The notes beneath the pieces are model-generated. The model had not been told where the DNA came from and did no database searches. It saw only the letters and a list, made by a program, of their open reading frames with translations. This document shows positions 5,554-59,097 of a stretch of 64,000 nt of DNA, in pieces. How positions within the stretch are numbered: the stretch's first letter is position 1; every line of letters begins with the position of its first letter. The DNA comes from Candidatus Methylophosphatis haderslevensis (GTDB lineage: Bacteria > Pseudomonadota > Gammaproteobacteria > Burkholderiales > Rhodocyclaceae). The stretch lies in NCBI GenBank assembly GCA_016711925.1, contig JADJSA010000007.1, positions 18,087 through 82,086 of the forward strand, in the 5' to 3' direction. Position numbers and translations under genes: made by a program.

Positions 5554-6102
5554 ATGGGTCTCGATCGCGTTCCATCCGGCAAGAATCTGCCGAACGATTT
5601 CAACGTCGTCATCGAAATTTCGATGCACGCCGATCCGATCAAGTACGAAGTCGACAAGGAATCCGGCGCGATTTTCGTCGACCGCTTCATGGGTACGGCC
5701 ATGCACTATCCGTGCAATTACGGCTACATCCCGCACACCATCGCCGGCGACGGCGATCCGGTCGACGTGCTGGTGGTGTCGCCGTTCGGGCTGCCGCCCG
5801 GCACCGTGGTGCGCTGCCGCCCGGTCGGCATGCTGTCGATGGAAGACGAGGCGGGCGCCGACGCCAAGCTGCTCGCCGTGCCGGTCGACCAATTGACGCC
5901 GATGTACCGCGATATCGAGAGCCCGCGCGATTTTCCGCAGATCATGCTCGACCAGATTTCGCACTTTTTCTCCCACTACAAGGATCTCGAGCGCGGCAAG
6001 TTCGTCAAATTGCGCGGCTGGCTCGGCGCCGAAGAAGCGAAGACTGAAATCATCGAAGGCGTGCAGCGCTTTGCCGACGCGAAGGAGAAGCCGGCGTTCT
6101 AA
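5554..6102 (+). CDS. ppa: inorganic pyrophosphatase
   Basis: 182 aa with YPCNYGYIPHTIAGDGDPVDVLV and other family I PPase signatures. Confidence 0.92.
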   Translation: MGLDRVPSGKNLPNDFNVVIEISMHADPIKYEVDKESGAIFVDRFMGTAMHYPCNYGYIPHTIAGDGDPVDVLVVSPFGLPPGTVVRCRPVGMLSMEDEAGADAKLLAVPVDQLTPMYRDIESPRDFPQIMLDQISHFFSHYKDLERGKFVKLRGWLGAEEAKTEIIEGVQRFADAKEKPAF

Positions 6103-6120
6103 GCCCCGCCTGCCGCAGGC

Positions 6121-6147
6121 AAAAGCCCGCAGAGTGCGGGCTTTTTT
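6121..6147 (+). terminator. rho-independent terminator of ppa
   Basis: GCCCGC-AGAGT-GCGGGC hairpin followed by T6, 19 nt after the ppa stop. Confidence 0.8.
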
Positions 6148-6160
6148 ATTTTGTGGCGGT

Positions 6161-6250
6161 CTGGGAGCCGCATGGAATGGCGCTTTTCGGCATGGCAAGG
6201 CTGAGCGCCTTGCTGCATGCGGGCTCCAGCCTTGCCTGCCATGAAAGTCT
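6161..6250. repeat. REP-like palindromic intergenic element, copy A
   Basis: CTGGGAGCCGCATGGAATGGCGCT...GGCATGGCAAGGCTG...CATGCGGGCTCCAGCCTTGCC with nested inverted repeats. Near-identical to 17516-17605. Confidence 0.8.
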
Positions 6251-6330
6251 TACTGTACAAGGCTCTCCAGGCTGCCGGTTAACGCGGCCCATCAGTGGCG
6301 AGCGGCGCGCCAGCCGTTGCGGTTGTCGGC

Positions 6331-7455
6331 TCAAGAGGTCAGTCGGCGGGCGTTTGCCGCCTCGGCCGGCGGCAGGCGCTTGAGCGGAATGTTGACGTAG
6401 ATGCCGGCGAACAGGTCCGCATCGAGATAGTCGGCCGGCTTCGCAAGGTTGAAGCGCGGCGCGATTTCGTCGATCGCGAGGCGCGTCTTGTCGTCGAGCG
6501 TGCCGGTCGCGGCGAGCGGAAAGCCGAATTCCTTGAGCGTGTTCTGCAGCCACTTGACCTTGGTCGGCGTATCGTTCTTGACGTAGCTGCGCTTGATCGC
6601 ATCCATGACAACCGGGTCGGCCTTGCCGTTCGGAATGCAGCGCCAGTAGGGCACGTTGGTATGACGGCCGAGCACTTCGAGCACCGACAGGTCGACCAGC
6701 AGGCGGATCGCGCTGTGGCGTCCCTGCAGGTAGCGCGTGTTGCTCACCACGCCGAAGGCATTGCCATAGATCGCAAAATCGATGCCGTTCTCGTAAGTCT
6801 GGTTGAGCACCCGGATCGTGTTGGTCGCCTGCACCCGCGGAATCATGGTCTGGGTGCTGAAATCGATCAGGTTCAGATCGAGCGACAGATCGGACAATGT
6901 GGTGGCCGATTTGCGGTCCCAACTCAGGTCGGTCTGGCCGCGCCCGCCGCCGAACACGCCGCGTGCGTTCGCGCCCTTGCCCGCGCTGCCGATGGCGCGG
7001 TCGAATTCGGTGATCGCGCCGGTTATCAAAACGTCCGGCTGGGTCAGTTGAATCTTGGAACCCTGCTGCGCGTGGGCGATCACGTAATCGGGCTGGAACG
7101 GAACATATACGACTCGCTGCCCGACCCGGTTGATCGCGCTGCGCACCATCTCGGTGACGTCGCCGGGAAGTTCGGCGCCGACCAGCGGATGCGAAAGACC
7201 GGTGGCATCGCCGATGCCGCGCGTCTGCACATAGAGCACCTTGCCCGACGGGCGATACTTCTCCAGCAGGTCGCCGAAGCTCTCCAGCGCGCCGCTGTAG
7301 CGCGTGACCAGCGCGGTCGGGCTGCTCGATTCGGCCGTCTTCCTGGCCACCAATTCGCGCGCCGCCTTTTCGGACTCGCCGAGGGTTGCACACCCGCCGC
7401 CGGCCAGGCTGGCGATGGAGAGCAGAGCCAGACAACAGAATTTCGATGTGTTCAT
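6331..7455 (-). CDS. CsgG/HfaB-like outer-membrane lipoprotein with C-terminal peptidoglycan-binding domain
   Basis: Lipobox LAGGGC. Core resembles CsgG (GDATG...DVTEMVRSAINRVG...ITGAITEFD...LDLNLID). The C-terminus VKWLQNTLKEFGFPLAATGTLDDKTRLAIDE matches the PG_binding_1 pattern. Confidence 0.6.
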   Translation of the reverse strand: MNTSKFCCLALLSIASLAGGGCATLGESEKAARELVARKTAESSSPTALVTRYSGALESFGDLLEKYRPSGKVLYVQTRGIGDATGLSHPLVGAELPGDVTEMVRSAINRVGQRVVYVPFQPDYVIAHAQQGSKIQLTQPDVLITGAITEFDRAIGSAGKGANARGVFGGGRGQTDLSWDRKSATTLSDLSLDLNLIDFSTQTMIPRVQATNTIRVLNQTYENGIDFAIYGNAFGVVSNTRYLQGRHSAIRLLVDLSVLEVLGRHTNVPYWRCIPNGKADPVVMDAIKRSYVKNDTPTKVKWLQNTLKEFGFPLAATGTLDDKTRLAIDEIAPRFNLAKPADYLDADLFAGIYVNIPLKRLPPAEAANARRLTS

Positions 7456-7482
7456 GATCTCGTCCCGCCTATGGTTGGAAAT

Positions 7483-7857
7483 CTACTTGCCGCCCACCGT
7501 CGTGATGTTTCCGTTGATCGCGCCCCGTTCGACGATCACCGTGATGTTGCCGCGATTGCCGCCTTCGATATGCGGGCTCGCGATGTTGATGTCGCCGCCG
7601 TTGTCGTCCGGATTCGCCGAGACGGACTGCTTGTTGGCGATGGCGGTACGCACGTTCGACATGGCTTCATGCGTCGCGCGATGAGCCTTGCTGCGTGCCG
7701 CAACCGCGTAGATGCCGATATTCCGAACGTCGATCGGCTCGCGGTCGAGTTGCGCGGCATAGCCCTTGATCGGCGCGTAATACTCCGGGTCGATCGCGTT
7801 GGACACGTTTGCGATCAGGCAGCCCCAAAGTGCCAGGACAATTTTTCGTAGCAGCAT
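7483..7857 (-). CDS. small exported protein (124 aa), Gly/Asn-rich C-terminal repeats
   Basis: ATG at 7857, N-terminal hydrophobic signal MLLRKIVLALWGCLIANVSNA, tail GGDINIASPHIEGGNRGNITVIVERGAINGNITTVGGK. Only the last 124 codons of the 288-aa track ORF look coding. Confidence 0.5.
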   Translation of the reverse strand: MLLRKIVLALWGCLIANVSNAIDPEYYAPIKGYAAQLDREPIDVRNIGIYAVAARSKAHRATHEAMSNVRTAIANKQSVSANPDDNGGDINIASPHIEGGNRGNITVIVERGAINGNITTVGGK

Positions 7858-7913
7858 CTTTGCCTCCGGGCCGGACTGGGGGGCGACCGGGCGTCGCCCC
7901 CCAACGCGATTGA

Positions 7914-8270
7914 TCACTTCAGTACAACGGAATTCACGTTCATCGTGCCGCCACCGAGGTTGTAGACGTCTTCCGCCTTGTTGCCGTCGATCAGTACCGT
8001 CCCGCCGATCTTGCCGCCATTGGAGACCACCAGCGAGTTCACGTTGGTTTCGCCTGCCGCATCGACCTGGACTTTCGCACCCGTGAGCGCCCCGAGAACG
8101 CCGCCCGACTTGACCCCGACGTTCGCGCCGCCGGACATGATCCGGGTCGCCTTGTTGTTGCTTACGGTGACCGATGCGCCCGACATGATCTCCGGTGCGC
8201 CGGCGGCGAGTACGGACATCGACGCGGCAGCCAGCGTGGAAATGACAATCAACTTGGATACGATCTTCAT
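7914..8270 (-). CDS. small secreted repeat protein (118 aa), beta-solenoid/curlin-like periodicity
   Basis: Signal peptide MKIVSKLIVISTLAAASMSVLAAGA. The mature part is Gly/Asn/Val-rich, with a GG...V.V pattern recurring every ~15-17 aa. Confidence 0.6.
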   Translation of the reverse strand: MKIVSKLIVISTLAAASMSVLAAGAPEIMSGASVTVSNNKATRIMSGGANVGVKSGGVLGALTGAKVQVDAAGETNVNSLVVSNGGKIGGTVLIDGNKAEDVYNLGGGTMNVNSVVLK

Positions 8271-8361
8271 GTTGTGACTCCTTCTTGCGATGGTGGATGG
8301 TTGGCCGAAATTCGACCGGGTTGCCGGTGCCGCGCATGTCGCCCGGCACGAACGGAATCAG

Positions 8362-9169
8362 TCAGGCGAGGGCGCGAAACTGCACGCGACGGTTGTAGGC
8401 GCTGTTCGGGTGGGTGCCAGGCAGCGGCTTGGCGGAACCCAGCCCCTTCGCAACCAGCGCCGCTTCCGGGATGGCGTGGCTGGCGATCAGGTAGCGTTTG
8501 ACGGCCTCGGCGCGGAGCCGCGACAGCTTGAGGTTGCCGGCGCTCGAACCTGCGGCATTGGTGTGTCCCTCCACCACCACCTTGCGTTCGAAGCCTGCCA
8601 GCTTGATGCCCTCGGCGATCGAGTCGATCGCGCGCTTGGAGGCATCATTCAACTGCCATGAATTGTTGGCGAACTTGATCGCCAGCGCCAATGCGTCCGC
8701 CTTGCCGGCCGAGGCCGGCCGGGGCGATTCCGTCTGTTGCGCGGCCTTTCGCGCATAGGCGGTCGAAGCCACCGCTTCGCCGCGCAAGCCATCCGCCCGG
8801 GACGGCAGCGCATAGGCGGTCTTCTGCATCGCGCCGCCACTGCCGCGCTGCGCGATCTGGCCGAGTTTTGCGTTCCATGCGCCGACTGCTGCACTCGCGC
8901 TGGCGGCGATCTCGTCTTCGCTGACGGTATGGCCGGCATCCTTGATTTCCTGTTCCACCGCAGCGGGTTCGTCAGGTGTATAGAACAGACCGCGCGTCTT
9001 GGGCAGGCTGGCGAAGCGTGCCGGCGTGGCGCCCAGTATCCGCGCCACCACGCGCGGGTCGGGCACGTCCCCGGCCTGGTACACCCGGATGCTTTCCGCA
9101 CAGGCTGCAGCGCTCACGACAAGGGCGATCGAGCAGGGAGAGGGTCGAGCGGATGATTCGTGCGTTCAT
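8362..9169 (-). CDS. OmpA/MotB-family peptidoglycan-associated protein; signal peptide out of frame by one base
   Basis: C-terminal OmpA_C motif VVVEGHTNAAGSSAGNLKLSRLRAEAVKRYL...NRRVQF. The track ORF starts at GTG 9117 with no signal peptide. An ATG at 9169 with an AAGGAG RBS encodes MNARIIRSTLSL. Dropping one base near 9130-9134 joins it to IALVVSAAACAES. Confidence 0.65.
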
Positions 9170-9222
9170 GATGGCTCCTTCTTCTTCCCGAGGGTCGGCA
9201 ACGTGTGTCGCTGATGTCCCTG

Positions 9223-9250
9223 TGTCGAAGGAGCGATCGCACCGGTTCAA
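9223..9250 (-). promoter_or_regulatory. ECF-type promoter candidate TTGAACC-N16-CGACA upstream of the ompA-like gene
   Basis: The minus strand reads TTGAACC-ggtgcgatcgctcctt-CGACA, in the 150-nt gap between the caspase stop (9320) and the ATG at 9169. Same -35, spacer length and -10 core as the two sites at 15769-15796 and 16156-16183. Confidence 0.55.
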
Positions 9251-9319
9251 TAATTCTTCACGGCAATTTGGCGACGGCGGTCGCGGCGCGCACGCCACCT
9301 GGGCGGTGCGCGCAGTGAA

Positions 9320-12208
9320 TCAGCGAATCGGGCTCGCGATTTGCCCGATCACGCTGTCGCGCAGTGCGACGGGCGAAATCATCTGCGGGGTCTGCGGGCC
9401 GAGCCGCCGGTCGCGCAGGCGATCGACCATCGGCACGGCATGGTCGAACAGTTCGCGCAGAGTGAGCTTGCGGTCGCGATCGGCGTCGGCTGCACCGCTC
9501 AGACCCTCGAGCAGCGCATAGGTGAACAGGCCGTGCCGGCCCGGCGCATATTCTTGCGAATCCTCGCCGCCGCGCGCCGCCACCACCAGGGCGAAGCGCG
9601 AACTGGCCGAGCGTTTGGCGAGATTGTGAGAATCGAAGGTGCCGGCGATGTTCTTTGCCTGGCAGGTGTCGACGATCAATATGCGGCGTCCGGCGACGGC
9701 GCGCAACGCGTCGAAGAAATGCGTCCATGAGAGCAGCGAATCGCCGCCCGGCGGACGGCCCCTGACCAATTGTTCGACGTCTTTCGGATCGGCATCGCGC
9801 GGCACGAAGTAGTAGTTGCCGGCAGCGTCGCTGATGCCGTGCGAGGCGAGGAAGATCACCACCGTGTCGCGTGCGCGCGCTGAGCGCGCGAACTTGAGCG
9901 CGGCGAGGATGCTGGCCTTGTCGGGCTTGCCGGCGCTGGCATCGCTGAGCAGTTTGACGCGTACGTTGGCGAAGAGGCCCTTGCCCGTGCGTTCGAGTGC
10001 GGCGGCCATCTCCTCGGCGTCCTGTGCGGAGAAGTTCAGCCTGAACTTGTCGGCCAGCCGCGGAAAGCTGCCCGCACCGATCGCGAGCAGGTAGAGATCG
10101 CCACGGCCCGCGGCGGGTTCGGCGGCGTCGGAGAATACGACCTGTTCGGCAACGCCGATCGAGACGCCGTTGAACACCTCGACCCGCACCCGATTGATGC
10201 CGCGCGCGAGTTCAAGGTCGAGCTCGCGCGAAAACTGCTCGCTTGCGCCGCCGGAGAGTTCGCGCTCGCTGGCGGCGATCACCGGGACGTTGTTGACGAA
10301 CACCGCGACATCGCGCATCGGCAGGCGCGTGCGCTGCGCGCTCAGCCGAAAACGGGAACGGGATGCACTCTTCTCGCTGCGCCGCAGCCGTTCGAGTTGC
10401 AGCCGGGGCGGGGCCACTTCCGCCAGCCGCGTGACATCGAATCCCTTCTTCCCGTCGATCTCCGGCAACGCGCGACCCTTGCTGGTGAAAAATGCCTGGA
10501 CCATATCCGGCCGGTAGAGCAGCCGGTCGAACTGCGAGGCCAGCACGAAGTCGGGCGCGCTCTCCTTGCCCTGGTTGATAAGCCAGCCGATGTAGTTGTC
10601 GCCCTGCGGCGATGATGTGTAGTAGCCAGCCGGAATCCAGGCGATCCATTCGCGGCTGTGCGCGTGCACGAACAGCGCCAGCACTTCGGCGCCGTCGTCC
10701 ATCCGGTACCAGCGCAGGGTGCCGTCGCCCAGACCGGCGACCACCCATTCGCCATTGCCGCTGATCGTCGCCGCCAGCGCCACCGACGGAAGCGCCTTGC
10801 TCCACGCGATGGCGCCGGCGGAATCGACGCGGTGCAGGTTCCATTCGGTGCCGAGCACGGCGCTGCGCAGGTTCGGCGCGATCGCATGGCAGCGCGACCG
10901 CTCGTAGGGTTCGAGCGCGATGGCCTTGCCGTTGAGCATCGGGCGATAACCGTCGCGGGCGTGTTCGATTCTCCAGCCTGCGGCCGAACGGATCGGCCCT
11001 TGCAGGCCGCGACGCTGTTCGGCCGATGGTTCGCCGTCGGCTTCGGCGAGCGAGAAATACGCCGGGCCACGTGGCGCCGGAAACGACACCAGCGACGCAT
11101 CGGGAGCGAGTTTGAGCGTGGCGTTGATGTACACCGGCAACTCCGACTCATGCACCGCCAACACCTTGCCCTCGCTGTCGATCAGGCCGATGCTCGGATC
11201 GTCGGTGGTGAACGCGATCTCGCCCGACGCCGTGGCGGCGATGTCCCCGAGGCGGGTGCGGGCAACCGGCGTGGCGACCGGCTTGCCGCGCCCGTCTGCG
11301 GGCCAACAGCGGATGTGGTTGGTACCCGCGGCGCGAGCCTCGCCCGCGGCGCAGAGTTTTTTGCCGCGCGCCGCCCAACTCAGCGAATAGAGGTTGACCA
11401 GATTGGCCGCCGCGTCGCGGGCCGAGGCCCAGATTGGCGTCAAGTCCCGGGCCGAGAGGACGGCGATGCGCGGCGTGTCGTAAAAGCCTACGGCTATCCG
11501 CTCGCCGTCCGGTGAATAGCGGATCGACGCCGGTTTGTTCCCGGCGAGCATGCGCTTGCGCAGGCGCAGCCTGGCCTGCTCGTCATAGAGCCGGACCATG
11601 CCGTCGAGCGAACTGACCGCGAGGCGCCCGGCCGCGTCGTAGTCCATCTCGATTATTTTGTCGGCATACTGCGCGTCGCGCCCGGCAATCCGGTAGTCGC
11701 TGCTGTCCAGAACGTAGAGCCCCGAATTGCCAAGCAGGCCGACCGCCAGGTGCTTTCCGTCCGGCGAATAGCCGAGCGCGCCGACCCCTTCGGGAAAGCC
11801 GCCGATCCGGCGCACCAGGCGCCCGCCGTTCATGTCGAACAGATAGACGCTGGCCTTGCCGTCCCAGTCCCAACCGGTCCACCCGGCCACAGCCAGGGTG
11901 GCGCCGTCGGGCGAGAGGGCGGCGGCGTACAACTGGCCTTCGTTTCCGTCGGCGATCGGCACGCGCAAGGTCGCCCGCAACTGCAAGTCGGGCAGGCCCC
12001 AGATGCGTATGGTTTTGTCGTGACCGACCGAAATGATCTGGGAACGCGTGGCGTCGGCCACGATCTTGTGCACGGCGCCGACGTGGGAGCCGGGTTCGAT
12101 CAGAAGAATCGGCGCTGCCGGCGGCCCGTCGATGCGCGCGACCCCCGGCAGGGGACAAGCGAGGCTGGTGGCGGCCAGCAGCGCCGCGAGCCAGCGCCGA
12201 CTACCCAC
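9320..12208 (-). CDS. secreted WD40 beta-propeller / caspase (peptidase C14) fusion protein
   Basis: N-terminal signal peptide (RRWLAALLAATSLA). WD repeats (GHDKTIRIWGL, SLDGMVRLYD, GLGDGTLRWY). C-terminal C14 domain with His in VVIFLASHG and Cys in ILIVDTCQA. Confidence 0.8.
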   Translation of the reverse strand: MGSRRWLAALLAATSLACPLPGVARIDGPPAAPILLIEPGSHVGAVHKIVADATRSQIISVGHDKTIRIWGLPDLQLRATLRVPIADGNEGQLYAAALSPDGATLAVAGWTGWDWDGKASVYLFDMNGGRLVRRIGGFPEGVGALGYSPDGKHLAVGLLGNSGLYVLDSSDYRIAGRDAQYADKIIEMDYDAAGRLAVSSLDGMVRLYDEQARLRLRKRMLAGNKPASIRYSPDGERIAVGFYDTPRIAVLSARDLTPIWASARDAAANLVNLYSLSWAARGKKLCAAGEARAAGTNHIRCWPADGRGKPVATPVARTRLGDIAATASGEIAFTTDDPSIGLIDSEGKVLAVHESELPVYINATLKLAPDASLVSFPAPRGPAYFSLAEADGEPSAEQRRGLQGPIRSAAGWRIEHARDGYRPMLNGKAIALEPYERSRCHAIAPNLRSAVLGTEWNLHRVDSAGAIAWSKALPSVALAATISGNGEWVVAGLGDGTLRWYRMDDGAEVLALFVHAHSREWIAWIPAGYYTSSPQGDNYIGWLINQGKESAPDFVLASQFDRLLYRPDMVQAFFTSKGRALPEIDGKKGFDVTRLAEVAPPRLQLERLRRSEKSASRSRFRLSAQRTRLPMRDVAVFVNNVPVIAASERELSGGASEQFSRELDLELARGINRVRVEVFNGVSIGVAEQVVFSDAAEPAAGRGDLYLLAIGAGSFPRLADKFRLNFSAQDAEEMAAALERTGKGLFANVRVKLLSDASAGKPDKASILAALKFARSARARDTVVIFLASHGISDAAGNYYFVPRDADPKDVEQLVRGRPPGGDSLLSWTHFFDALRAVAGRRILIVDTCQAKNIAGTFDSHNLAKRSASSRFALVVAARGGEDSQEYAPGRHGLFTYALLEGLSGAADADRDRKLTLRELFDHAVPMVDRLRDRRLGPQTPQMISPVALRDSVIGQIASPIR

Positions 12209-12229
12209 GTGGCCGGCCCCGCAGCCTGG

Positions 12230-13978
12230 TCAGGAGCAGGCCGTGGCGCGAGACTGCTCTGCGCGGCGCACTGCCACATGCCGCGCCGGCGCGCGCGCTT
12301 TGCACGCCACCGGCGGCGTCGTTGCCGCGTTGCTCGCGCGGGCGAACACATCTGGGGCGGCGCCATAGGCTGGGGAACTGCGACCCAGATCGGCCGTCTG
12401 CGCGATGCCGCGACCGCTGAGTTCGCCCGGCCGGTGCGGCGCACTGGCCTGCACCGGGTTCTCGGCGACTCGCAGGCCGCGGGTTACCGTGTCGCCCTGC
12501 AGCCGCGCGAGCGCAAACGACGCGCGGGTGACGCGGCCGAAGATCAGCGGTTGGACCGGATTGCCCGGGGCTGCCGCCAAGGTGCGGGTTGTGGCAGCGC
12601 GCGCCTGACGCGGACGGCGGTTGCGCGGCGGGTTGGCGGCGTACTCGTCGTCGCCGGCTTGCGCGACCGCTCGCGAGGCGGCGGCTTTGGCGGCCTGGGT
12701 TTGGCCGGAGGCGCGCCGGGCAGGGAAGTCGGCGGCGGTGTCTTTCGGCGCGGTGGCGGCCGTGGGCCGCGTGGCGTCGAACTCGCCGATGCTGCGATCG
12801 ACGATATCCATGCCCTGGCGCAGCGACTGCGCCGCAGGCGCACCGGCACGGCTCGGATCGGCGCTCGAATCGGGCAACATGACGGTGATGCTGCCGGGGT
12901 CCGGGTTACGCTGTTGCGACGCGGGGCTTTGCGGCACGCTTCCGGCCACCGGGTCGCCCTGCTGCGACGTCGGGCCGTGGGGAACCTGGCCGCGCGGCGT
13001 TTCTCTCCCTCCGACGGCCTTGCCGGTTGATGGATCGATCGCACTGGCACTCGGCGCATAGGCGAGTTTGACCGGTTCGCTCGCGGCCGTGTTGCGTACG
13101 CTGCCTGAACCGGCGCTTTCCCATGCAGCCGGAGCGGGAGCGGAATTGCTGGCAGCGCTGCCCGGTGCGGCTCTGCCCGAGCGCTCGGCCTGTTGCGGGC
13201 GCGACGGTGCCGGCTGGGGCGCGCTGGTCGGTGCGGCCTGCGTTGCGCTGGCATTGGGCGGCGGGAACGCTGCCGGCGACACTGCGGTCTTGAGCAGCGT
13301 TCCGTCCGGGTTGCGGTAGTAGTTGATGGTGATCTCGTGGCCGTCCGATCCCTTGACGTACTCGGTCTTGACCGGGTTGCCGAGCCCGCCACCCGTGCTG
13401 GTCCTGGATGCGCCGGCGGCGGTTTGCGCCGCTGCCGCAGCCGCGGTGGCCGCGGGGCGATCCGCGCCGCCTTGCCCCGTGGCGGAGGCTGGCGCCGGTG
13501 GTGGCGGCGCAGCCGCCGCGCGAGGTGCCGACGAAACCGCTTCTACCGGTTTGGCAGGCTGATCGGGTGCCTTGGTGATGGCGACGGACGGGGTACGGGG
13601 AATCTGCCCGTTCAGGCCGCCGCCGCCGAGCATGGATTTGGCACCGGAGACCGGCGCCGGCTGCGCCGCTGCGGTCTTTGCGGCAGGGGCGACCTTTGCG
13701 GCAACGGCCGCCGCCGCGGACGCCGCGCCCTTTGCAACAGCCGGGACCAGCGGGGGCGGGGCTTTGACGGGCTTGGCGGCGGCGGACGTGGTCGACTGCC
13801 TGGATGCGCTTTGGCTGGTGTTCGGCGGAATGATGCCTCCGCTCGAGAATCTCGCATCGGCCTTGCCGGATGCCAGGACAGAGAAAACGATGCCCAGACA
13901 CAGGGCAGAGATGCGCCGCGTTGGCCCGGTGCACGTCCGGCGGGAATTGTGCCGCGCTGCAGTCGAGATTCGTGTCAT
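12230..13978 (-). CDS. secreted Ala/Pro/Ser/Thr-rich low-complexity protein (582 aa), function unknown
   Basis: GGGGAGA RBS plus ATG at 13978, signal-like segment ISALCLGIVFSVLASGKADA. It is the only frame without an extreme Arg bias. It sits tightly packed between the TpsB-like and caspase genes. Confidence 0.5.
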   Translation of the reverse strand: MTRISTAARHNSRRTCTGPTRRISALCLGIVFSVLASGKADARFSSGGIIPPNTSQSASRQSTTSAAAKPVKAPPPLVPAVAKGAASAAAAVAAKVAPAAKTAAAQPAPVSGAKSMLGGGGLNGQIPRTPSVAITKAPDQPAKPVEAVSSAPRAAAAPPPPAPASATGQGGADRPAATAAAAAAQTAAGASRTSTGGGLGNPVKTEYVKGSDGHEITINYYRNPDGTLLKTAVSPAAFPPPNASATQAAPTSAPQPAPSRPQQAERSGRAAPGSAASNSAPAPAAWESAGSGSVRNTAASEPVKLAYAPSASAIDPSTGKAVGGRETPRGQVPHGPTSQQGDPVAGSVPQSPASQQRNPDPGSITVMLPDSSADPSRAGAPAAQSLRQGMDIVDRSIGEFDATRPTAATAPKDTAADFPARRASGQTQAAKAAASRAVAQAGDDEYAANPPRNRRPRQARAATTRTLAAAPGNPVQPLIFGRVTRASFALARLQGDTVTRGLRVAENPVQASAPHRPGELSGRGIAQTADLGRSSPAYGAAPDVFARASNAATTPPVACKARAPARHVAVRRAEQSRATACS

Positions 13979-14010
13979 CGTGTTCTCCCCTATCGACCGC
14001 CTGCGCGGTC

Positions 14011-15726
14011 TCAGAAGCGGTAGCTGAGTCCAGCGAACAGCCGCGGACGGCGGTTGCCAGGCTCGGACACATCGCGCGTCAGCGGCTGCGCGACTTCCAC
14101 AAACGCGCCGGCGCTGCTGCCCAAATTCATGCGCACTCCCAGGCCCGCGGAGGACGCGGAGTGTGAAGAAACTTCACCGAGATCTTGCCGCGGCGAGCGA
14201 ATCCAGGCCTTGCCGATGTCGTAGAAACCGTAAACCGTGTACGGGCCGGGCAGCGCTTCGGGTTTGCCGCCGCTCAGGCGCAGCTCGAGCTTGAGCGCCA
14301 GGCCGGAATCGCCCACCAGTTCGGCCGCATTGTAGCCCCGCCCGAACTGTTCGCCGCCGAACGCGAACTGCTCCGGCACCAGCAGGCTGTTGGCGGCGAT
14401 CTGGCCATTGATTGCCGCCAGCAGCGACCAGCGCTCGGCGATCGATTGCAGCCGAGCGGCATAAATCGTGGTCTTGAAAAAGTCGTTGCGGCCGTTCTCG
14501 CGCGAACGGTCCGGATCGTCGTTCGACGATGCGCCCAGGCCGCGCAGACCCTTGGACAATTCGACCTCGAGCAGATTCACGCCGCCTAGGGTATCCACCG
14601 AGTCGAGCGTCATTGCCAGCCGCAGCGCGCGAATTCGGTCGCGGGTAACCGGCGAACCGGGCACGTCGGTCTTGCCGTTGTGCGCGGTGTAGGCGCCGCG
14701 CAGATAAACGTTGGCGTCCTGCGTGCGGTAGAGCGGGTAGCTCGCCGAAATTGCCATGCCGCGCGACTGCGTTTCGAGGTTGCTGTTGAAGCCGGGATCG
14801 CTGGCGCGTGAATCGCTGCCATTGACCGAAAGGCCCACCCGCGCGCCGCTCGATCCGATCGGTTCGTCATGGGAAAGGACGAGGTAGTTAAGTTCGCGGT
14901 TGCCGGTGGTCACGGCACGAAACGCAGTCTCGTCGAAGTTCCCGGTAAGCCCGGTTGCGAACACGTCGAAATAGCCGCGCCAGGCACCGGCGGATCGACT
15001 GCCCCGGTTGTCCGCAGCGACCGCGCCGCCGAAGCGGTTGCGCGCGACCTCGATGACCAGCGCATGCGCGCCGGGTTGCCCGGAGATCGGTTCCAACGCG
15101 GAAGAAACGCCGAGGCCGCCGAGATCGTTCATCAGGAACAGATTGCGCTCGAGCACGTTTGCCGTTGCCGGGCGCTCCTGGCGAATCGGCTGGACGAACG
15201 GCTCGAAGGCCGCGAGCGGGATGTCGCCGCCGCCTTGAATCCGCACCTCGGCCACGTAACCCTCGCTGGCGGCAAGACGCACCACGCCGTTGGTCACGCT
15301 TTGCTCGGGCACCGCGACTTCCGACAACAGGTAGCCGTCGCGTCGATAGCGCTGAGTGAGCGTCTCGGCCAGCGCCATCAACTCGGCCTGCGTCACCTTG
15401 CGGCCGAGGTAGGGCGCGAACACCGGTTGCAGATCGTCCTGACGATACACGGTGCTGCCTTCGAGTTGGAAACCCGATACGTCGACGCCTTCGCCCAGCG
15501 GGGGCGGACGGGTTGCGCGTTGGGGCAGGGCCGGCGGGCGCGGTCTCGCGCCACTGCGCGATTGCGGCGGCTTGCGGAATTGCCGTTCGACCTGGCCGCC
15601 GGAATCGATGTCGCCGGCGCCGATTGCGACCGGCACAGAGGTTGCGCAAAGGATGAGAACGGCGAGCGGCCGCCGGGCAATCAGGCAGACGCGGTTACGG
15701 CGTCGATCACTCAAGTTGGGCTGCAT
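14011..15726 (-). CDS. ShlB/FhaC/HecB-family (TpsB) outer-membrane transporter with POTRA domain
   Basis: 571 aa. Signal peptide, POTRA-like FQLEGSTVY...LGRKVTQAELMALAETLTQRYRRDGYLLSEV, and a beta-barrel ending ...RLFAGLSYRF with a terminal aromatic residue. Confidence 0.8.
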   Translation of the reverse strand: MQPNLSDRRRNRVCLIARRPLAVLILCATSVPVAIGAGDIDSGGQVERQFRKPPQSRSGARPRPPALPQRATRPPPLGEGVDVSGFQLEGSTVYRQDDLQPVFAPYLGRKVTQAELMALAETLTQRYRRDGYLLSEVAVPEQSVTNGVVRLAASEGYVAEVRIQGGGDIPLAAFEPFVQPIRQERPATANVLERNLFLMNDLGGLGVSSALEPISGQPGAHALVIEVARNRFGGAVAADNRGSRSAGAWRGYFDVFATGLTGNFDETAFRAVTTGNRELNYLVLSHDEPIGSSGARVGLSVNGSDSRASDPGFNSNLETQSRGMAISASYPLYRTQDANVYLRGAYTAHNGKTDVPGSPVTRDRIRALRLAMTLDSVDTLGGVNLLEVELSKGLRGLGASSNDDPDRSRENGRNDFFKTTIYAARLQSIAERWSLLAAINGQIAANSLLVPEQFAFGGEQFGRGYNAAELVGDSGLALKLELRLSGGKPEALPGPYTVYGFYDIGKAWIRSPRQDLGEVSSHSASSAGLGVRMNLGSSAGAFVEVAQPLTRDVSEPGNRRPRLFAGLSYRF

Positions 15727-15768
15727 TGACGAATTATCGGGCGGTTGGTTTGGGGTTGCTCACGGCTA

Positions 15769-15796
15769 AGTCGAAACCGGCGCCCGCGGGGTTCAA
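15769..15796 (-). promoter_or_regulatory. ECF-type promoter candidate TTGAACC-N16-CGACT upstream of the TpsB-like operon
   Basis: The minus strand reads TTGAACC-ccgcgggcgccggttt-CGACT. The -10 lies about 43 nt upstream of the ATG at 15726. Confidence 0.6.
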
Positions 15797-16155
15797 GAAA
15801 TTTAAGGCGGGCGGGCGAACAATCGGGCTGCGTCCAGCGTCCAAAGTGCCATCGAGCCGGTCGGGCGCGCCGGCAAACGCCGGCCGGCATGATGCTGAAA
15901 TCCGTCTTGCGGCACGCCAGCCGCCGGATCGGGACCAGCCTGCGGGTCGGGACCGGGAGCGCTCCACGCCGATCCGCCACGCAGACGATGGTATCCGACT
16001 CCATTGGCATCGTCCAGATCAAATGCTGTCGCCGCGTGGCGACAGGGAGTGCGTAGCCGATCGTCTCGCACGGGGCTTGCAGCGCGGCCGGTCCGCTGCG
16101 CCCAAGCGCCCATGCAATAATCCGTACCGCTTCTGCCGATGGCGACAAACACAAT

Positions 16156-16183
16156 TTGAACCTGCGCGCGCCTTGCTGCGACT
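16156..16183 (+). promoter_or_regulatory. ECF-type (autoregulatory) promoter candidate TTGAACC-N16-CGACT upstream of the sigma gene
   Basis: The plus strand reads TTGAACC-tgcgcgcgccttgctg-CGACT. The -10 ends 5 nt before the ATG at 16189, which implies a leaderless or near-leaderless mRNA. Confidence 0.55.
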
Positions 16184-16188
16184 CAACA

Positions 16189-16767
16189 ATGACGTCACGA
16201 AACGCCGAGCCGGAAGACCCTCGCATACGGACCCTGCTCGACGCTGTTGAACGCGGCGACGAGGCAGCCATGCAGGATTTGTACCGCTCGTTCAACCGGC
16301 GCGTGTTCGCGTTCGCGATGAACCGTCTGAACGACCATGCGGAGGCCGAAGAAGTGACCATCGATACGCTGCTCGAAGTGTGGAAGCACCCGCAACGATT
16401 CCGTGGCGAATCGCGCTTCAGCACGTGGCTGCTCGGCATCGCGCATCACAAGGCGATCGATCGCCTGCGTTCGCGTCGCAACGATCATGTGCCGGCAGAC
16501 GAGCATCTCGATCTGATCGCCGACCCGGCATTGCGCCCCGACCAGGTGGTCGAAGCGGCCGATCGGCAGCGCATGCTCGCCGAGTGCATGGACAAGCTGC
16601 CCGACGAACAGCGCGAGTGCCTGCACCTGGTGTTGCTCGACGGGCTGTCGCTGGCGGAAGTGTCGCAGGTCCAGGCATGCCCGGAAAACACGGTGAAGAC
16701 GCGGCTCTTCCACGCGCGGCAGAAGATGAAGAACTGCCTCGGGCGGCTCGAAGCCTGGAGTGCCTGA
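16189..16767 (+). CDS. ECF (group 4) RNA polymerase sigma factor
   Basis: Sigma-70 region 2 (DLYRSFNRRVFAFAMNRLNDHAEAEEVTIDTLLEVW) and region 4 (LPDEQRECLHLVLLDGLSLAEVSQVQACPENTVKTRLFHARQKM). The start is taken at ATG 16189. Confidence 0.88.
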   Translation: MTSRNAEPEDPRIRTLLDAVERGDEAAMQDLYRSFNRRVFAFAMNRLNDHAEAEEVTIDTLLEVWKHPQRFRGESRFSTWLLGIAHHKAIDRLRSRRNDHVPADEHLDLIADPALRPDQVVEAADRQRMLAECMDKLPDEQRECLHLVLLDGLSLAEVSQVQACPENTVKTRLFHARQKMKNCLGRLEAWSA

Positions 16768-16768
16768 C

Positions 16769-17452
16769 ATGAGCGAACCGACGACCGAAGCGAACGGCGC
16801 ACGGACTGCCATGATGTTCGCGTATCTGAATGGCGAATTGCCGGCTGACGAACGCGCGCGCTTTGAAGCGACGCTCGACGCCGAGCCGAAGCTTGCCGCC
16901 GAACTGGCCGACTGGCGGCAGCTTCGCGGCGAACTCGAAGTGCGCAGGCAGCAGCGCGCGCCGGAGGCCGGACTGGACGCGTTTTCACGCCAATTGCGGG
17001 GTTTGCGGCAGTCGCGCAAGGCCGGCCTTGCCGCATGGATCGAGGGCGCGATGCGCCCGCTCTATTCACCCCTGCGCTATGCCGCAGCGTTGCTGCTGGT
17101 GGTGGTACAGGCCGGTTTCATCGCCGCCATGTTGCGCGACATGCCGGCGGCCGGGCCGGACGACGCCGGCACGCCGACCGCCCGGGTGCGTTCGATCGAG
17201 AATGCGTCGACGGCCTCGCTGCGCGTGCGCTTCCGGCTCGACGCAACCGCGCGCGAGATCGCCGCCGCCCTGGCGAGCGCCGGTGCGCGCATCGTGGATG
17301 GCCCGGGGCAGGGCGGGTTTTATGCTTTGCGGGTCGCCGAGGGCACGCCTGCCGCCGCGGCCGCCGCGCTGCGTAAGAGTGCGGCCGTCGACGAGATTGT
17401 CGAAGGCCCGAACCCCGAGGCGCCGCCCGCCGATCCGCCGCGCAAGCGCTAG
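16769..17452 (+). CDS. anti-sigma factor, single-pass membrane protein
   Basis: The start overlaps the sigma stop (TGACATG). N-terminal anti-sigma-like helix pattern MMFAYLNGELPADERARFEATLDAEPKLAAELADW without Zn ligands. One TM segment (YAAALLLVVVQAGFIAAML) and a periplasmic C-terminal domain. Confidence 0.7.
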   Translation: MSEPTTEANGARTAMMFAYLNGELPADERARFEATLDAEPKLAAELADWRQLRGELEVRRQQRAPEAGLDAFSRQLRGLRQSRKAGLAAWIEGAMRPLYSPLRYAAALLLVVVQAGFIAAMLRDMPAAGPDDAGTPTARVRSIENASTASLRVRFRLDATAREIAAALASAGARIVDGPGQGGFYALRVAEGTPAAAAAALRKSAAVDEIVEGPNPEAPPADPPRKR

Positions 17453-17515
17453 CAGGACGAACCCGCCGCGCCGGGCAATCGCCGCGGCGGCCGCATGCCT
17501 TTGAATAGGCATGCC

Positions 17516-17605
17516 CTGGGAGCCGCATGGAATGGCGCTCTCCGGCATGGCAAGGCTGCGGGCCTTGCCGCATGCGGCTTCCAGCCTGGCATGGCCTGGA
17601 ACGGC
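17516..17605. repeat. REP-like palindromic intergenic element, copy B
   Basis: CTGGGAGCCGCATGGAATGGCGCTCTCCGGCATGGCAAGGCTGCGGGCCTTGCCGCATGCGGCTTCCAGCC..., nearly identical to copy A. Confidence 0.8.
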
Positions 17606-17631
17606 CGTGTGGTGCGGCTTTCCGGCATGGA

Positions 17632-18897
17632 TCAAGCGCGCGGGCGAAACGGCGCGTGCGCTTCCAGTTCGCTCACATAGTCGGCGATGGCGAGCGATTC
17701 GTGGTCGAGGTGGCGTTCGATCGCATCGGCAAAGCGCGGGTCGCGAATCCAGTGCGCCGAGGCGGTGCGCACCGGCAGCAGCCCGCGGGCCAGCTTGTGC
17801 TCTCCCTGGGCACCGCCTTCGAAGCGGCCGATGCCGTGGTCGATGCACCATTCGATGCCCTGGTAATAGCAGGCCTCGAAGTGCAGCAGCGGCACGTGTT
17901 CCAGTTCGCCCCAGTAGCGGCCGTAGAGCGCCTGCGCGTCGCAGATGTCGAGCGCGGCGGCAATCGGCCGTCCGGCGCGCTCGGCGACGAACAGCAGCAG
18001 GTTCTCGGGCATGCTGCGCGCGAGTTCGAGGAAGAACGCCAGGTTCAGGTATGGCTGCTGGCCGCGCTGGTGATAGGTGTTGCGGTAGCAGCGCAGGAAG
18101 CAATGCCAGTCGGCCTCGCCGATCTGCGGGCCGCGCAAATGGCGGAAGGTGACGCCGGCGTCGCGCACGCGGCGGCGCTCCTGGCGGATCTTCTTGCGCT
18201 TGTCGCGCGCCAGCGAATCGAGAAAACCGTCGAAATCCGGCCAGCCGGCGTTGTGCCAGTGAAACTGCACCGCGTGGCGAATCTGCAGGCCCGCGGCTTC
18301 GAGCAGCGCGGTGTCATTGGCGTCGGCGAACAGGATGTGCAGCGACGACACGTCGGCGTGCCGGGCGAAGCCGGTCAGCGCGCCGACCAGTGTACGGCGG
18401 GCCGGCGGGTCGGGCGCCAGCAGACGCGCGCCCGGTATCGGCGAGAACGGCACGCTGCAGACAAGCTTCGGGTAGTAGCGCTGGCCATGGCGCGCGTAGG
18501 CTTCGGCCCAGGCCCAGTCGAACACGAATTCGCCGCGCGAATGCGATTTCTCATACAGCGGCAGCGCGCCGATCAGCCGATCGTCCTGCCACAGCGTCAG
18601 GTGGCGCGGCCGCCAGCCGGTGCGTGCGCTGGCGCATCCGCTGCTCTCGAGCGCGCGCAAGAAGGCGTGCCGGACGAACGGCTGTCCGCCCGCCAGGGCA
18701 TCCCAGTCGGGGCCGGCTACGTCATCGATCGAATCGAGAATCCGCACGGTGGCGGTGGCTGGCTTGTTCAAGAGCGGTCTCGCAGAGGCATGCGCGATAG
18801 GGATCGGGCGCGAACGGGCGGTTGGCAGGGTGGGGCGAAATCGAACCGGCGCGAACCAGCGCCGGACCGGGACAATGGTACGGCATCCGCTCCGCAC
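17632..18897 (-). CDS. GNAT/FemAB-like acyltransferase fold protein (COG3146/DUF482 family)
   Basis: WDALAGGQPFVRHAFLRALESSGCASARTGW...ALPLYEKSHSRGEFVFDWAWAEAY...YYQGIEWCI... is typical of this family. The true start is probably the GTG at 18747 (VRILDSIDDV), since the upstream 50 codons are Arg/Pro-rich. Confidence 0.65.
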   Translation of the reverse strand: MRSGCRTIVPVRRWFAPVRFRPTLPTARSRPIPIAHASARPLLNKPATATVRILDSIDDVAGPDWDALAGGQPFVRHAFLRALESSGCASARTGWRPRHLTLWQDDRLIGALPLYEKSHSRGEFVFDWAWAEAYARHGQRYYPKLVCSVPFSPIPGARLLAPDPPARRTLVGALTGFARHADVSSLHILFADANDTALLEAAGLQIRHAVQFHWHNAGWPDFDGFLDSLARDKRKKIRQERRRVRDAGVTFRHLRGPQIGEADWHCFLRCYRNTYHQRGQQPYLNLAFFLELARSMPENLLLFVAERAGRPIAAALDICDAQALYGRYWGELEHVPLLHFEACYYQGIEWCIDHGIGRFEGGAQGEHKLARGLLPVRTASAHWIRDPRFADAIERHLDHESLAIADYVSELEAHAPFRPRA

Positions 18898-18941
18898 AGC
18901 CGGCGGCGCACAAGCCGGGCGGGTCGCGTTATAGTTGCCGC

Positions 18942-20564
18942 ATGACTACGTTACCGACTCTGCGCATCGCGATTGCGCAACTCAACTGCGTGCTCGGCGA
19001 TATCGCCGGCAACGCGCGGCGCATCGCCGAGATGTCGCTGCAGGCGCGCGATGCCGGCGCCGACATCGTCGTCACGCCGGAACTCGCGCTGTGCGGCTAT
19101 CCGCCCGAAGACCTGCTGCTGCGGCCGGATTTCTACCGCGCCTGCGCGCGCGAGCTGGTGGCCCTGGCGGCGCGCATCCGCGGCGTGACCCTGGTGGTCG
19201 GTTTTCCCGAGGCCGACGGCGAGCGCCGCTTCAACGCGGCCGCGGTGATCCAGGAAGGGCGCGTGATTGCCGTCTATCGCAAGCATCGCCTGCCCAACTA
19301 CGAAGTGTTCGACGAGGAGCGCTATTTCGACCATGGCACCCGGCCGTGCGTGATCGCGGTCAAGGGTATCGGTTGCGGCATCAACATCTGTGCCGACGTC
19401 TGGGAGGCCGGCGCGGCGGACGCCGCCTACGCTGCCGGCGCCCAGTTGCTGCTGGCGCTCAACGCCTCGCCGTATCACATGAACAAGCAGTCGAGCCGTT
19501 ACGAGGTGCTGCGCAACCGGATCGCCGACACCGCCATGCCGGTGATCTACGCCAACCTGGTCGGCGGGCAGGACGAACTGGTGTTCGACGGGGCGTCGTT
19601 CGCGCTCGATGCGCGCGGCGACCTGGTGTATCAGGCGCCGTCGTTCGAGGAATCGCTCGACATCGTCGAATTCGTCGATGGCGACCTGCAGCGCGGCCGG
19701 GTCGCCGCCGCCCAGCCGCTGGAAGCCGACGTCTATGGTGCGCTGCGCCTCGGGGTGCGCGACTACATCGGCAAGAACGGCTTTCCCGGCGCGATCATCG
19801 GCCTGTCGGGCGGGGTCGATTCCGCGCTCACGCTGACTATCGCGGTCGATGCGCTGGGCCCGGACAAGGTGCGCGCGGTGATGATGCCATCGCCCTACAC
19901 CGCGCAGATGAGCCTCGACGATTCGCGCGAACTGGTGGCCAACCTCGGCATCCGCTACGACGAAATCCCGATCGAACCGGCGATGAAGACCTTCGAGGCG
20001 ATGCTGGCGAAGGAGTTCGCCGGGCGCGCCGCCGACGCCACCGAAGAGAACCTGCAGGCACGCATCCGCGGCATGATCCTCATGGCATTGTCGAACAAGT
20101 TCGGCGCGATCGTGCTGACCACCGGCAACAAGAGCGAAATGGCGGTGGGGTATGCGACCCTCTACGGCGACATGGCCGGCGGCTTCGCGGTGATCAAGGA
20201 CATCTACAAGACCTTCGTCTATCGCCTGTGCGCCTGGCGCAACGGCGTGGCGCCGGTGATTCCGCAGAACATCCTGACACGCGCGCCGTCGGCCGAACTC
20301 AAGCCCGGCCAGACCGACCAGGACACCTTGCCGCCTTACGAGACGCTCGATGCGATCATCCAGTGCTACATGGAGCACGACGAGAGCCCGCGCGAAATGC
20401 TGGCCAAGGGGTTCGGCGAAACCGATGTGCGCCGCATCGTGCAAATGCTCAGGCGCAGCGAATACAAACGCCGCCAGTCGCCGGTTGGCATACGCGTGAC
20501 GCGGCGCGGCTTCGGCAAGGATTGGCGTTATCCGATAACATCGCGCTATGTCGACGAGTGGTGA
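18942..20564 (+). CDS. nadE: glutamine-dependent NAD+ synthetase
   Basis: N-terminal CN-hydrolase domain (LRIAIAQLNCVLGD, TPELALCGYPPEDLL) followed by an NAD synthase domain (GLSGGVDSAL, TTGNKSEMAVGYATLYGDM). Start at MTTLPTL. Confidence 0.92.
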   Translation: MTTLPTLRIAIAQLNCVLGDIAGNARRIAEMSLQARDAGADIVVTPELALCGYPPEDLLLRPDFYRACARELVALAARIRGVTLVVGFPEADGERRFNAAAVIQEGRVIAVYRKHRLPNYEVFDEERYFDHGTRPCVIAVKGIGCGINICADVWEAGAADAAYAAGAQLLLALNASPYHMNKQSSRYEVLRNRIADTAMPVIYANLVGGQDELVFDGASFALDARGDLVYQAPSFEESLDIVEFVDGDLQRGRVAAAQPLEADVYGALRLGVRDYIGKNGFPGAIIGLSGGVDSALTLTIAVDALGPDKVRAVMMPSPYTAQMSLDDSRELVANLGIRYDEIPIEPAMKTFEAMLAKEFAGRAADATEENLQARIRGMILMALSNKFGAIVLTTGNKSEMAVGYATLYGDMAGGFAVIKDIYKTFVYRLCAWRNGVAPVIPQNILTRAPSAELKPGQTDQDTLPPYETLDAIIQCYMEHDESPREMLAKGFGETDVRRIVQMLRRSEYKRRQSPVGIRVTRRGFGKDWRYPITSRYVDEW

Positions 20565-20623
20565 GGCGCCCGGGTATGCGTCTCGCACGGCCAGCGGATC
20601 ATCGGAAACAGCATGGAGCGTAG

Positions 20624-30261: not shown

Positions 30262-30351
30262 GGAGAGGTGCCAGAGCGGTTGAATGGGCCGGTCTCGAAA
30301 ACCGGAATAGGGGCAACTCTATCGTGGGTTCGAATCCCACCCTCTCCGCCA
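30262..30351 (+). tRNA. tRNA-Ser (anticodon CGA)
   Basis: 90 nt. Acceptor stem GGAGAGG/CCTCTCC, anticodon loop CTCGAAA, long variable arm, T-arm GGGTTCGAATCCC, encoded CCA. Confidence 0.92.
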
Positions 30352-58777: not shown

Positions 58778-59097
58778 CTGAATCCCCTGTTGGTTCGCAA
58801 ATCGATCACAAGGCGACGCAGCGTGGAACTCGCGCGCAGGCGCGATGCGGGCAGTGACGGACCCGTTCCGACGGCCCCGCTGCCGTGCGTCCGGGACGAA
58901 CCTGCGCGCTTGCACCGCGGTTCGCCCGGCCGTGTAGGCCGGAAGCTTTGCGTCTCCGGGCTTTCGCCCGGGTTGCCCTTTGTGTGCAGTACGATTTCAG
59001 CCAGCGCCGGCATCGACTACACGTTGGGATGACCTACGGCGGATGCGCGGCGGACTTGAGGGGTGGGGCCGTGATATTGATCACGCCCGGTTGCCGA

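Follow-up and report, generated by a model that had tools for sequence, protein, structure and literature searches.

The 64-kb window analysed here (the whole stretch of 64,000 nucleotides (nt) from contig JADJSA010000007.1 of Candidatus Methylophosphatis haderslevensis) carries three copies of a bipartite element, TTGAACC-N16-CGACW, placed before the gene for an extracytoplasmic function (ECF) sigma factor, the gene for a TpsB-type outer-membrane transporter and an OmpA-like lipoprotein gene. From comparative sequence analysis we consider it highly probable that the three sites, named P_sig, P_tpsB and P_ompA, are promoters recognised by RNA polymerase with the ECF sigma factor encoded at 16189–16767. 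A first-pass annotation of this DNA had proposed the same assignment, and it is now supported by the conservation of the motif, its enrichment, its orientation and the agreement between the -10 sequences and the sigma protein tree. The sigma dependence, the start sites, the leaderless sigma mRNA, the inducing signal and the functions of the products, as discussed below, are what we infer from the same comparisons.

Occurrence of the motif in the window

A pattern search of the window returned exactly three matches, at 9223–9250 (-), 15769–15796 (-) and 16156–16183 (+), the same positions, strands and 16-nt spacer that had been read in the first-pass annotation; all motif counts for the source genome refer to this window. 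In dinucleotide-preserving shuffles the mean number of matches was 0.03, and none of 100 shuffles reached three. The probable autoregulatory promoter P_sig (16156–16185, +) consists of the -35 element TTGAACC at 16156–16162, the 16-nt spacer and the -10 element CGACTCA at 16179–16185. P_tpsB (15767–15796, -) has its -35 TTGAACC at 15796–15790 and its -10 CGACTTA at 15773–15767, and P_ompA (9221–9250, -), which sits in the 150-nt gap between a caspase-like gene and the OmpA-like gene, has them at 9250–9244 and, as CGACACA, at 9227–9221. All three sites are intergenic and each points toward the next gene, with the distance from CGAC to the start codon being 6 nt for sigma (ATG at 16189), 43 nt for TpsB (ATG at 15726) and 54 nt for the OmpA-like gene (ATG at 9169); the identities previously given to these three genes are borne out by domain matches. 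A T precedes TGAACC in every copy; two further features shared by the three copies, an A/T-rich stretch 5' of the -35 and an A three bases past CGAC, were not part of the earlier description.

A weight matrix was built from 27 sites (that of the window included) with [TC]GAAC[CT]-N16-CGAC directly upstream of a sigma start codon. It scored P_sig at 33.6 bits, P_ompA at 21.6 bits and P_tpsB at 20.7 bits, and the next best position in the window at 8.3 bits. The statement that the window holds no further copy is thus correct for the full motif; it does not hold for the looser TGAACC-N16-CGAC, which has two extra matches, at 22977–23002 (-) and 61279–61304 (-). Neither was accepted as a real site: the former is antisense within a Crp/Fnr-family gene, the latter is directed at the 3' portion of a Peptidase_M14 gene, and both were treated as chance matches because they score at most 8 bits on the weight matrix.

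Conservation of the motif across the sigma family

The comparison comprised 80 genomic loci around sigma homologues (45–81% identity), mostly from Burkholderiales and Rhodocyclales-type bacteria with a few Xanthomonadales, and 5 further loci from close relatives. The pattern TGAAC[CT]-N16-C[GA]AC occurred 180 times in the 80 loci compared with 10 times in the reversed-sequence control (18-fold), and the weight matrix found 180 sites of at least 14 bits in 1.27 Mb compared with 2 in the reversed sequences (90-fold). Among the 175 distinct sites with the N16 spacing across the 80 loci, positions that the search had left unconstrained were conserved: the T before TGAACC in 72%, a G before the -10 core in 79% and the A three past the core in 89%, with A at positions -9 to -5 in 32–51% of the family sites, where A and T each have a background frequency of 16% and G one of 34%. 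This conservation at unselected positions defines a fuller motif, an A-rich stretch followed by TTGAACC-N14-(t)G-C[G/A]AC-N-N-A. The GAAC/CGT-type architecture that had been suggested is upheld insofar as the element is of the bipartite ECF type; its -10 is not strictly "CGT-type", because CGAC alternates with CAAC in the sigma family, and is better written (t)G-CGAC-N-N-A.

Placement of the sites is equally constrained. A co-oriented site lies within 200 nt 5' of the matched sigma segment in 46 of the 80 sigma genes, and a site on the opposite strand in none; most of the remaining 34 sigma genes are directly downstream of a same-strand OmpA-like gene. Co-oriented sites also precede 47 of 58 OmpA-like genes and three of five TpsB genes. 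The gene caller, which is based on GC content at third codon positions (GC3), over-extends the 5' ends of open reading frames, and its "inside gene" class (47 of the 180 sites) is mostly an artefact of this, so that distances to homologous genes were used instead. The gene order of the window recurs in six loci (L081, L082, L084, L001, L006 and L002), and in every one of them the number of sites is exactly three, one each at the sigma, TpsB and OmpA positions. When each region was aligned across these six loci, TTGAAC and GAC..A were the sole long invariant blocks, with the spacers and flanks diverging, and the alignments of the three intergenic regions read as a clear phylogenetic footprint.

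The -10 variants follow the sigma factor

Within a locus, all or nearly all sites carry one and the same -10 variant, for example CAAC at seven of seven sites in L058, CGAC at six of six in L016 and TGAC at three of three in L002. The CGAC, CAAC, TGAC and AAAC variants each group together on the sigma protein tree, where the G/A difference requires about two changes. All clades share one -35 element, and the region 4 recognition helix does not vary; CGAC and CAAC loci are best told apart by the alignment columns R46, R76, H87 and D91, every one of which belongs to region 2, which reads the -10. The agreement between -10 and sigma clade supports co-evolution of sigma factor and promoter. Since the tree implies only about two G/A switches, the change is not assignable to individual sigma residues.

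The sigma factor itself (192 amino acids (aa); 16189–16767, +) matches Pfam Sigma70_r2 and Sigma70_r4_2, and TIGR02937 with 110.2 bits compared with a cut-off of 42.9; only sigma-70 regions 2 and 4 are present, as defines the ECF (group 4) class. The protein is identical to MBK8336809.1 from the metagenome-assembled genome of Candidatus Methylophosphatis haderslevensis.

The region upstream of the sigma gene

The sigma residues L16 and L17 are kept throughout the family, and no second start codon separates them from the ATG at 16189. Transcription from P_sig must accordingly start no later than 16189, at most 7 nt from CGAC. The sigma ATG stands 5–7 nt past CGAC in the window and in 12 other loci, and the aligned sigma-upstream regions have no Shine-Dalgarno sequence before the ATG. 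On these grounds a sigma mRNA that is leaderless, or has a leader of one base, appears somewhat more probable than not.

Other conserved sequences occupy the same intergenic region, from which the sigma and TpsB genes diverge. About 35 nt 5' of the ECF -35 is an extended -10-like sequence, TGCAATAAT (16113–16121, +), which resembles the extended -10 of the housekeeping sigma factor; the surrounding block CATGCAATAATCC (16111–16123, +) is near-invariant in four syntenic loci, with one base differing in L082. It may be a candidate basal housekeeping promoter for the sigma gene; a consensus promoter scan did not flag it, nor did that scan give any sigma-70-type promoter in 6000–17700. Further upstream is the conserved inverted repeat CTGTCGCC-gcgt-GGCGACAG (16026–16045). 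One of its stem pairs shows a compensatory change from C-G to T-A in L084; the same pair is altered in L082, where two other stem pairs are lost. Ahead of the repeat, and together with it in the stretch 15980–16045 in the middle of the region, stands the conserved block GATGGTATCC.ACTCCA.TGGCATCGTCCAGATCAAAT. The inverted repeat and the neighbouring block might bind a regulator, terminate transcription or act as an RNA element.

Conserved sequences ahead of the sigma gene were also seen in other clades. The CAAC-type clade (L003–L015, L021, L026, L029, L031–L032 and similar loci) has, about 35 nt before the sigma ATG and downstream of the ECF-type site, a conserved GCTATATT that is like a housekeeping -10. 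In a further clade a conserved TACCATG stands at about the same position.

Weighing of the promoter assignment

Several observations count against the assignment or complicate it. In P_tpsB and P_ompA the base before CGAC is T where the consensus has G, and their scores are about 12 bits below that of P_sig; these two may be weak promoters or require additional factors. The OmpA-like gene behind P_ompA is frameshifted by an extra base (TC at 9139–9138, where three relatives have a single G), which disrupts the frame within the lipoprotein signal peptide (MNARIIRSTLSLL / IALVVSAAAC; window 9130–9145, -), and this is either an assembly error or the mark of a pseudogene; the L081 orthologue is intact, with 268 aa. 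With the geometry of the Escherichia coli sigma-E promoters (C at -10, A at -7; PMC4598750), the sigma transcript would start 2–3 nt inside or past the ATG, and a leaderless mRNA requires a distance from -10 to start that is shorter than in sigma-E. The covariation of sigma residues with the -10 rests on only about two independent changes. Finally, additional regulation is suggested by the conserved TGCAATAAT and the conserved hairpin, both of which lie in the divergent intergenic region.

The alternative that survives best, although we consider it improbable, is that the sites are genuine ECF promoters read mainly by a paralogous ECF sigma encoded elsewhere, which would make the system one of cascade or cross-talk instead of autoregulation. 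Promoter recognition can overlap among ECF sigma factors whose -35 and -10 elements are similar (PMC5758882), cascades in which one sigma factor acts on another have been suggested (PMC3817407), and the inspection for other sigma factors covered only 64 kb of the genome; within these 64 kb there is no second ECF sigma gene. A paralogous reader would fit poorly with the presence of a site directly before the sigma gene in 46 of the 80 loci, and with the -10 variants shifting at all sites of a locus together with the clade of the adjacent sigma.

It is less probable still, and in our judgement very unlikely, that the element is not a promoter but is bound by a conventional transcription factor or by some other DNA-binding protein. 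In favour of this reading, the conserved inverted repeat and the other blocks of the divergent region indicate that other regulators probably act there. The element itself, which is neither a palindrome nor a direct repeat, consists of two blocks held apart by a strict 16-nt spacer of variable sequence, is strictly oriented to the downstream gene, lies tens of nt 5' of start codons, and matches known ECF promoters in the "AAC" of its -35 and the CGAC of its -10 (PMC4598750, PMC5758882), all of which argue for a promoter. That the three copies are chance matches or remnants of duplicated or mobile sequence has a negligible probability and no point was found in its support, given the shuffling result above, the conservation of the site positions across genera, and spacers and flanks that are unrelated among the three copies, which are therefore not duplicated segments.

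Proposed regulatory circuit

With the adjacent sigma as the reader of all three promoters, the following circuit may be drawn. In the resting state the membrane anti-sigma factor encoded at 16760–17452 would keep the sigma inactive, and an envelope signal, possibly redox-related, would free it. Region 4 of the free sigma would then read the -35 TTGAACC and region 2 the -10 (G)CGAC-N-N-A 16 nt downstream, probably assisted by the A/T-rich stretch 5' of the -35. From P_sig it would transcribe its own sigma/anti-sigma operon (unit 1), giving positive feedback, on a transcript that probably starts at the ATG or one base before it. From P_tpsB it would transcribe the TpsB transporter, a 582-aa disordered protein and an exported WD40-caspase protein (unit 2), and from P_ompA the OmpA-like lipoprotein, two small secreted proteins and a CsgG/HfaB-like lipoprotein (unit 3), which would end at a hairpin at 6121–6145.

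Judged by gene content across the collected loci, unit 3, that is, the OmpA-like gene with a nearby CsgG/HfaB-like lipoprotein gene, appears to be the conserved core regulon of the sigma family, and unit 2 a clade-specific addition, as the TpsB-WD40-caspase operon occurs, among these loci, only in the clade of the window. This bears on the proposal that an internal promoter splits one operon into two: a promoter does stand before the OmpA-like gene, and it would rather head a separate, more widely conserved module. We take P_ompA as the promoter of an independent and older module because the OmpA/CsgG core is widely conserved and the TpsB-WD40-caspase operon is confined to one clade. No terminator was predicted between the caspase gene and the OmpA-like gene, so that read-through from P_tpsB is also possible.

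Genes of the three proposed units

The anti-sigma gene (230 aa; 16760–17452, +), which overlaps the stop codon of sigma, is kept beside the sigma gene in 36 loci. Its product has a single predicted membrane helix (AALLLVVVQAGFIAAML), a weak zf-HC2 match and an NCBIfam "antisigma" match (E = 1e-9) that is below the cut-off of that model. The plus-strand open reading frames called after it (17527–18945 and 18935–20623) are wrong, the real genes being a FemAB-like gene (-) and NAD synthase; because the next genes are this convergent FemAB-like gene and then NAD synthase, the sigma operon consists of sigma and anti-sigma alone. Region 4 of the sigma contains four conserved cysteines (C133, C144, C164 and C183); in a family alignment of 32 homologues the first and the last do not vary, and the middle two are almost invariant. 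The closest solved relative is Mycobacterium tuberculosis SigK (4NQW, E = 1e-23), with whose cysteines C133, C144 and C183 align; since the SigK family is described as under redox control by way of a disulphide (PMC7826278), this hints at a second input to the sigma that is independent of the anti-sigma.

The first gene of the P_tpsB unit (14011–15726, -) encodes the TpsB-type outer-membrane transporter, with the POTRA domain and ShlB/FhaC barrel that characterise the transporters of two-partner secretion (TPS) (ShlB, PF03865, 81.9 bits; POTRA_2, PF08479, 71.7 bits). It is followed by the gene for a 582-aa low-complexity protein rich in Ala, Pro and Ser (12230–13978, -), which has an N-terminal hydrophobic segment and no family match. 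The GC content at second codon positions of this gene is 0.69, and the protein is poorly conserved, with 41% identity in L001, a relative whose sigma is 81% identical. The third gene (9320–12208, -) encodes an exported 962-aa protein with a signal peptide, a WD40 beta-propeller and a caspase-like (Peptidase_C14) domain. No N-terminal TPS (haemagglutination activity) domain, as would mark a TpsA, was found with Pfam and NCBIfam in either the 582-aa protein or the WD40-caspase protein; the 582-aa protein might nevertheless be the substrate of TpsB, though without such a domain.

The P_ompA unit begins with the gene for the OmpA-like peptidoglycan-binding lipoprotein (Pfam OmpA; 8362–9169, -), whose ATG at 9169 is preceded by a Shine-Dalgarno sequence, AAGGAG, at 9180–9175. 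Then come the genes for a 118-aa secreted Gly/Asn-rich repeat protein with NVNS..V..NGG motifs (7914–8270, -) and for a 124-aa secreted protein with no family match (7483–7857, -), the same gene as the latter being called in L081, L082 and L084. The AlphaFold model of the 118-aa protein, which has 19 homologues, is all-beta (pLDDT 71.5) and had no significant match in the PDB; its curlin-like nature is an impression. The last gene (6331–7455, -) encodes a 374-aa CsgG/HfaB-like lipoprotein with a possible peptidoglycan-binding domain. Its Pfam CsgG match (PF03783) is marginal, at 22.6 bits compared with a cut-off of 20.8 and covering 84 residues, and its weak NCBIfam HfaB match is far below the cut-off of that model; a CsgG/HfaB-like gene is linked to the sigma homologues in 32 loci. 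A bidirectional terminator-like hairpin (6121–6145) between ppa and the CsgG-like gene is the probable end of this minus-strand transcription unit.

Targets of the motif in other loci

When the first genes downstream of the sites were clustered, the largest groups were OmpA-like lipoproteins (47) and the sigma genes (39), with TpsB contributing 3. The further clusters were Gly/Asn/Gln-rich repeat proteins (two clusters, of 10 and 7), proteins of 75–83 aa (8), proteins combining Sel1 and caspase domains (8), and Ser/Thr kinases with DUF4384 (7).

In L079, L058, L074, L026 and others, the genes downstream of sites encode secreted proteins made of many Gln/Asn/Gly-rich repeats of about 22 residues (e.g., NATQSQSGG..N.Q..TIG.ASG), which are reminiscent of curlin-type fibre subunits; these genes are near that of the CsgG/HfaB-like lipoprotein, and their products matched no Pfam family. 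Sel1-repeat proteins with a caspase domain and Ser/Thr kinases with a C-terminal DUF4384 were seen as other targets of the motif (L020, L024, L027, L016, L022, L025, L054, L058, L062 and L065); in the first six of these loci the target genes lie about 2.5 kb upstream or 1 kb downstream of sigma. With Sel1-caspase targets elsewhere and the WD40-caspase protein here, caspase-like proteins recur in the regulon with different partner domains.

Relation to known systems

An ECF sigma factor usually drives its own operon through a promoter that lies upstream of it, and members of one ECF group have promoter motifs in common (PMC3817407, PMC7826278). An AAC is present in the -35 of two-thirds of ECF promoters (PMC4598750). 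CGAC is the -10 of the promoter through which Bacillus subtilis sigX is autoregulated, and single bases of the -10 serve to tell ECF sigma factors apart (PMC5758882). The element described here resembles the autoregulated promoters of E. coli rpoE and B. subtilis sigW and sigX in being bipartite, with an "AAC" -35 and a 16-nt spacer, and in standing upstream of a sigma/anti-sigma operon with repeats before neighbouring targets. It differs from all three in the extra conserved A three bases past the -10 core and in the sigma start codon 6 nt after the -10, and from the two B. subtilis promoters in its -35, which is TTGAACC here, tGtAAC in sigX and TGAAAC in sigW. The result extends a textbook-type ECF circuit to a new sigma family and leaves the understanding of ECF regulation unchanged. 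A literature search found no experimentally studied member of this betaproteobacterial sigma family, nor any paper that describes such a gene neighbourhood or motif for an ECF sigma, and the main text of the ECF reclassification paper contains no mention of caspase, CsgG, OmpA or CHAT.

By its closest sequence similarity (4NQW) and its conserved region 4 cysteine pair the sigma resembles the SigK / ECF18/ECF19/ECF214 clade, in which ECF18/19 members are described as controlled by a redox-sensitive cysteine pair besides the anti-sigma (PMC7826278). It departs from the SigK-like ECF19 group in its anti-sigma, which shows the weak zf-HC2 match and no RskA domain match, and it scores 120 bits on the NCBIfam SigK model (PRK09646), compared with a cut-off of 226. 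To our knowledge, a neighbourhood of OmpA-like, CsgG-like, caspase and TpsB genes is not that of SigK.

The hrp box of HrpL, with the consensus GGAACC-Nx-CCACNNA (PMC8809351), is very similar to the present motif, with which it shares the xGAACC, a spacer of about 16 nt and CxAC-N-N-A with the A three past the core. The two consensus sequences do not coincide: the first base of the -35 is T here (our search required T) and G in HrpL, and the second base of the -10 is G or A here and C in HrpL. HrpL-type sigma factors (ECF32) are reported not to be autoregulated (PMC7826278), whereas the sigma here has a site before its own gene. HrpL moreover controls type III secretion, and the present sigma is SigK-like by its best relatives; the comparison with HrpL concerns the promoter motif and the reported biology of that group.

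The P_ompA unit is like the curli (CsgEFG) and Caulobacter holdfast-anchor (HfaABD) modules in that a CsgG/HfaB-like lipoprotein gene follows two small secreted-protein genes, one of them for a Gly/Asn-rich product, and in that the larger Gln/Asn/Gly-rich repeat proteins stand behind the same motif in other loci. Neither the 118-aa nor the 124-aa protein, nor the repeat proteins of the other loci, matched the CsgA, CsgB, CsgE, CsgF or HfaA families, and the comparison is a lead and not a classification.

Taken more broadly, and here our confidence is low, the sigma/anti-sigma pair and its motif would define a widespread envelope system of betaproteobacteria and Xanthomonadales. In it a SigK-like, cysteine-bearing ECF sigma would drive an OmpA-like lipoprotein anchored to peptidoglycan, exported caspase-like proteases (here with a TpsB lacking a canonical TpsA), and a channel of the CsgG/HfaB type whose Gly/Asn/Gln-rich repeat proteins possibly form a secreted fibre; the -10 would have switched from CGAC to CAAC with the -35 and region 4 fixed and with R46, R76, H87 and D91 as candidate determinants; and the sigma mRNA would be leaderless in many members. 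If this is true, the sigma family is a natural experiment in promoter specificity, in which the clade-specific -10 change on an unchanged -35 provides a small natural data set for -10 discrimination by ECF sigma factors. In any case, a previously unannotated sigma factor is now linked to defined target genes, and the A-rich, TTGAACC-N14-tG-C[G/A]AC-N-N-A search motif is usable for defining the regulon in Candidatus Methylophosphatis and in many Burkholderiales. Exported caspase-like proteins, a TpsB without a recognisable TpsA and a CsgG/HfaB-like module would thereby be co-regulated envelope functions, which offers a starting point for the roles of bacterial caspase homologues outside the cytoplasm. 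The main interest lies in the conserved envelope regulon, the probable leaderless sigma mRNA and the clade-specific -10 switch.

Other features of the window

An Rfam scan gave no RNA family at the sigma/OmpA/TpsB locus. Elsewhere in the window it matched a cyclic di-GMP (c-di-GMP-I) riboswitch at 58867–58987 (-), with 42.5 bits compared with a gathering threshold of 35, and a tRNA gene is located at 30262–30348 (+); both are unrelated to the promoter motif.

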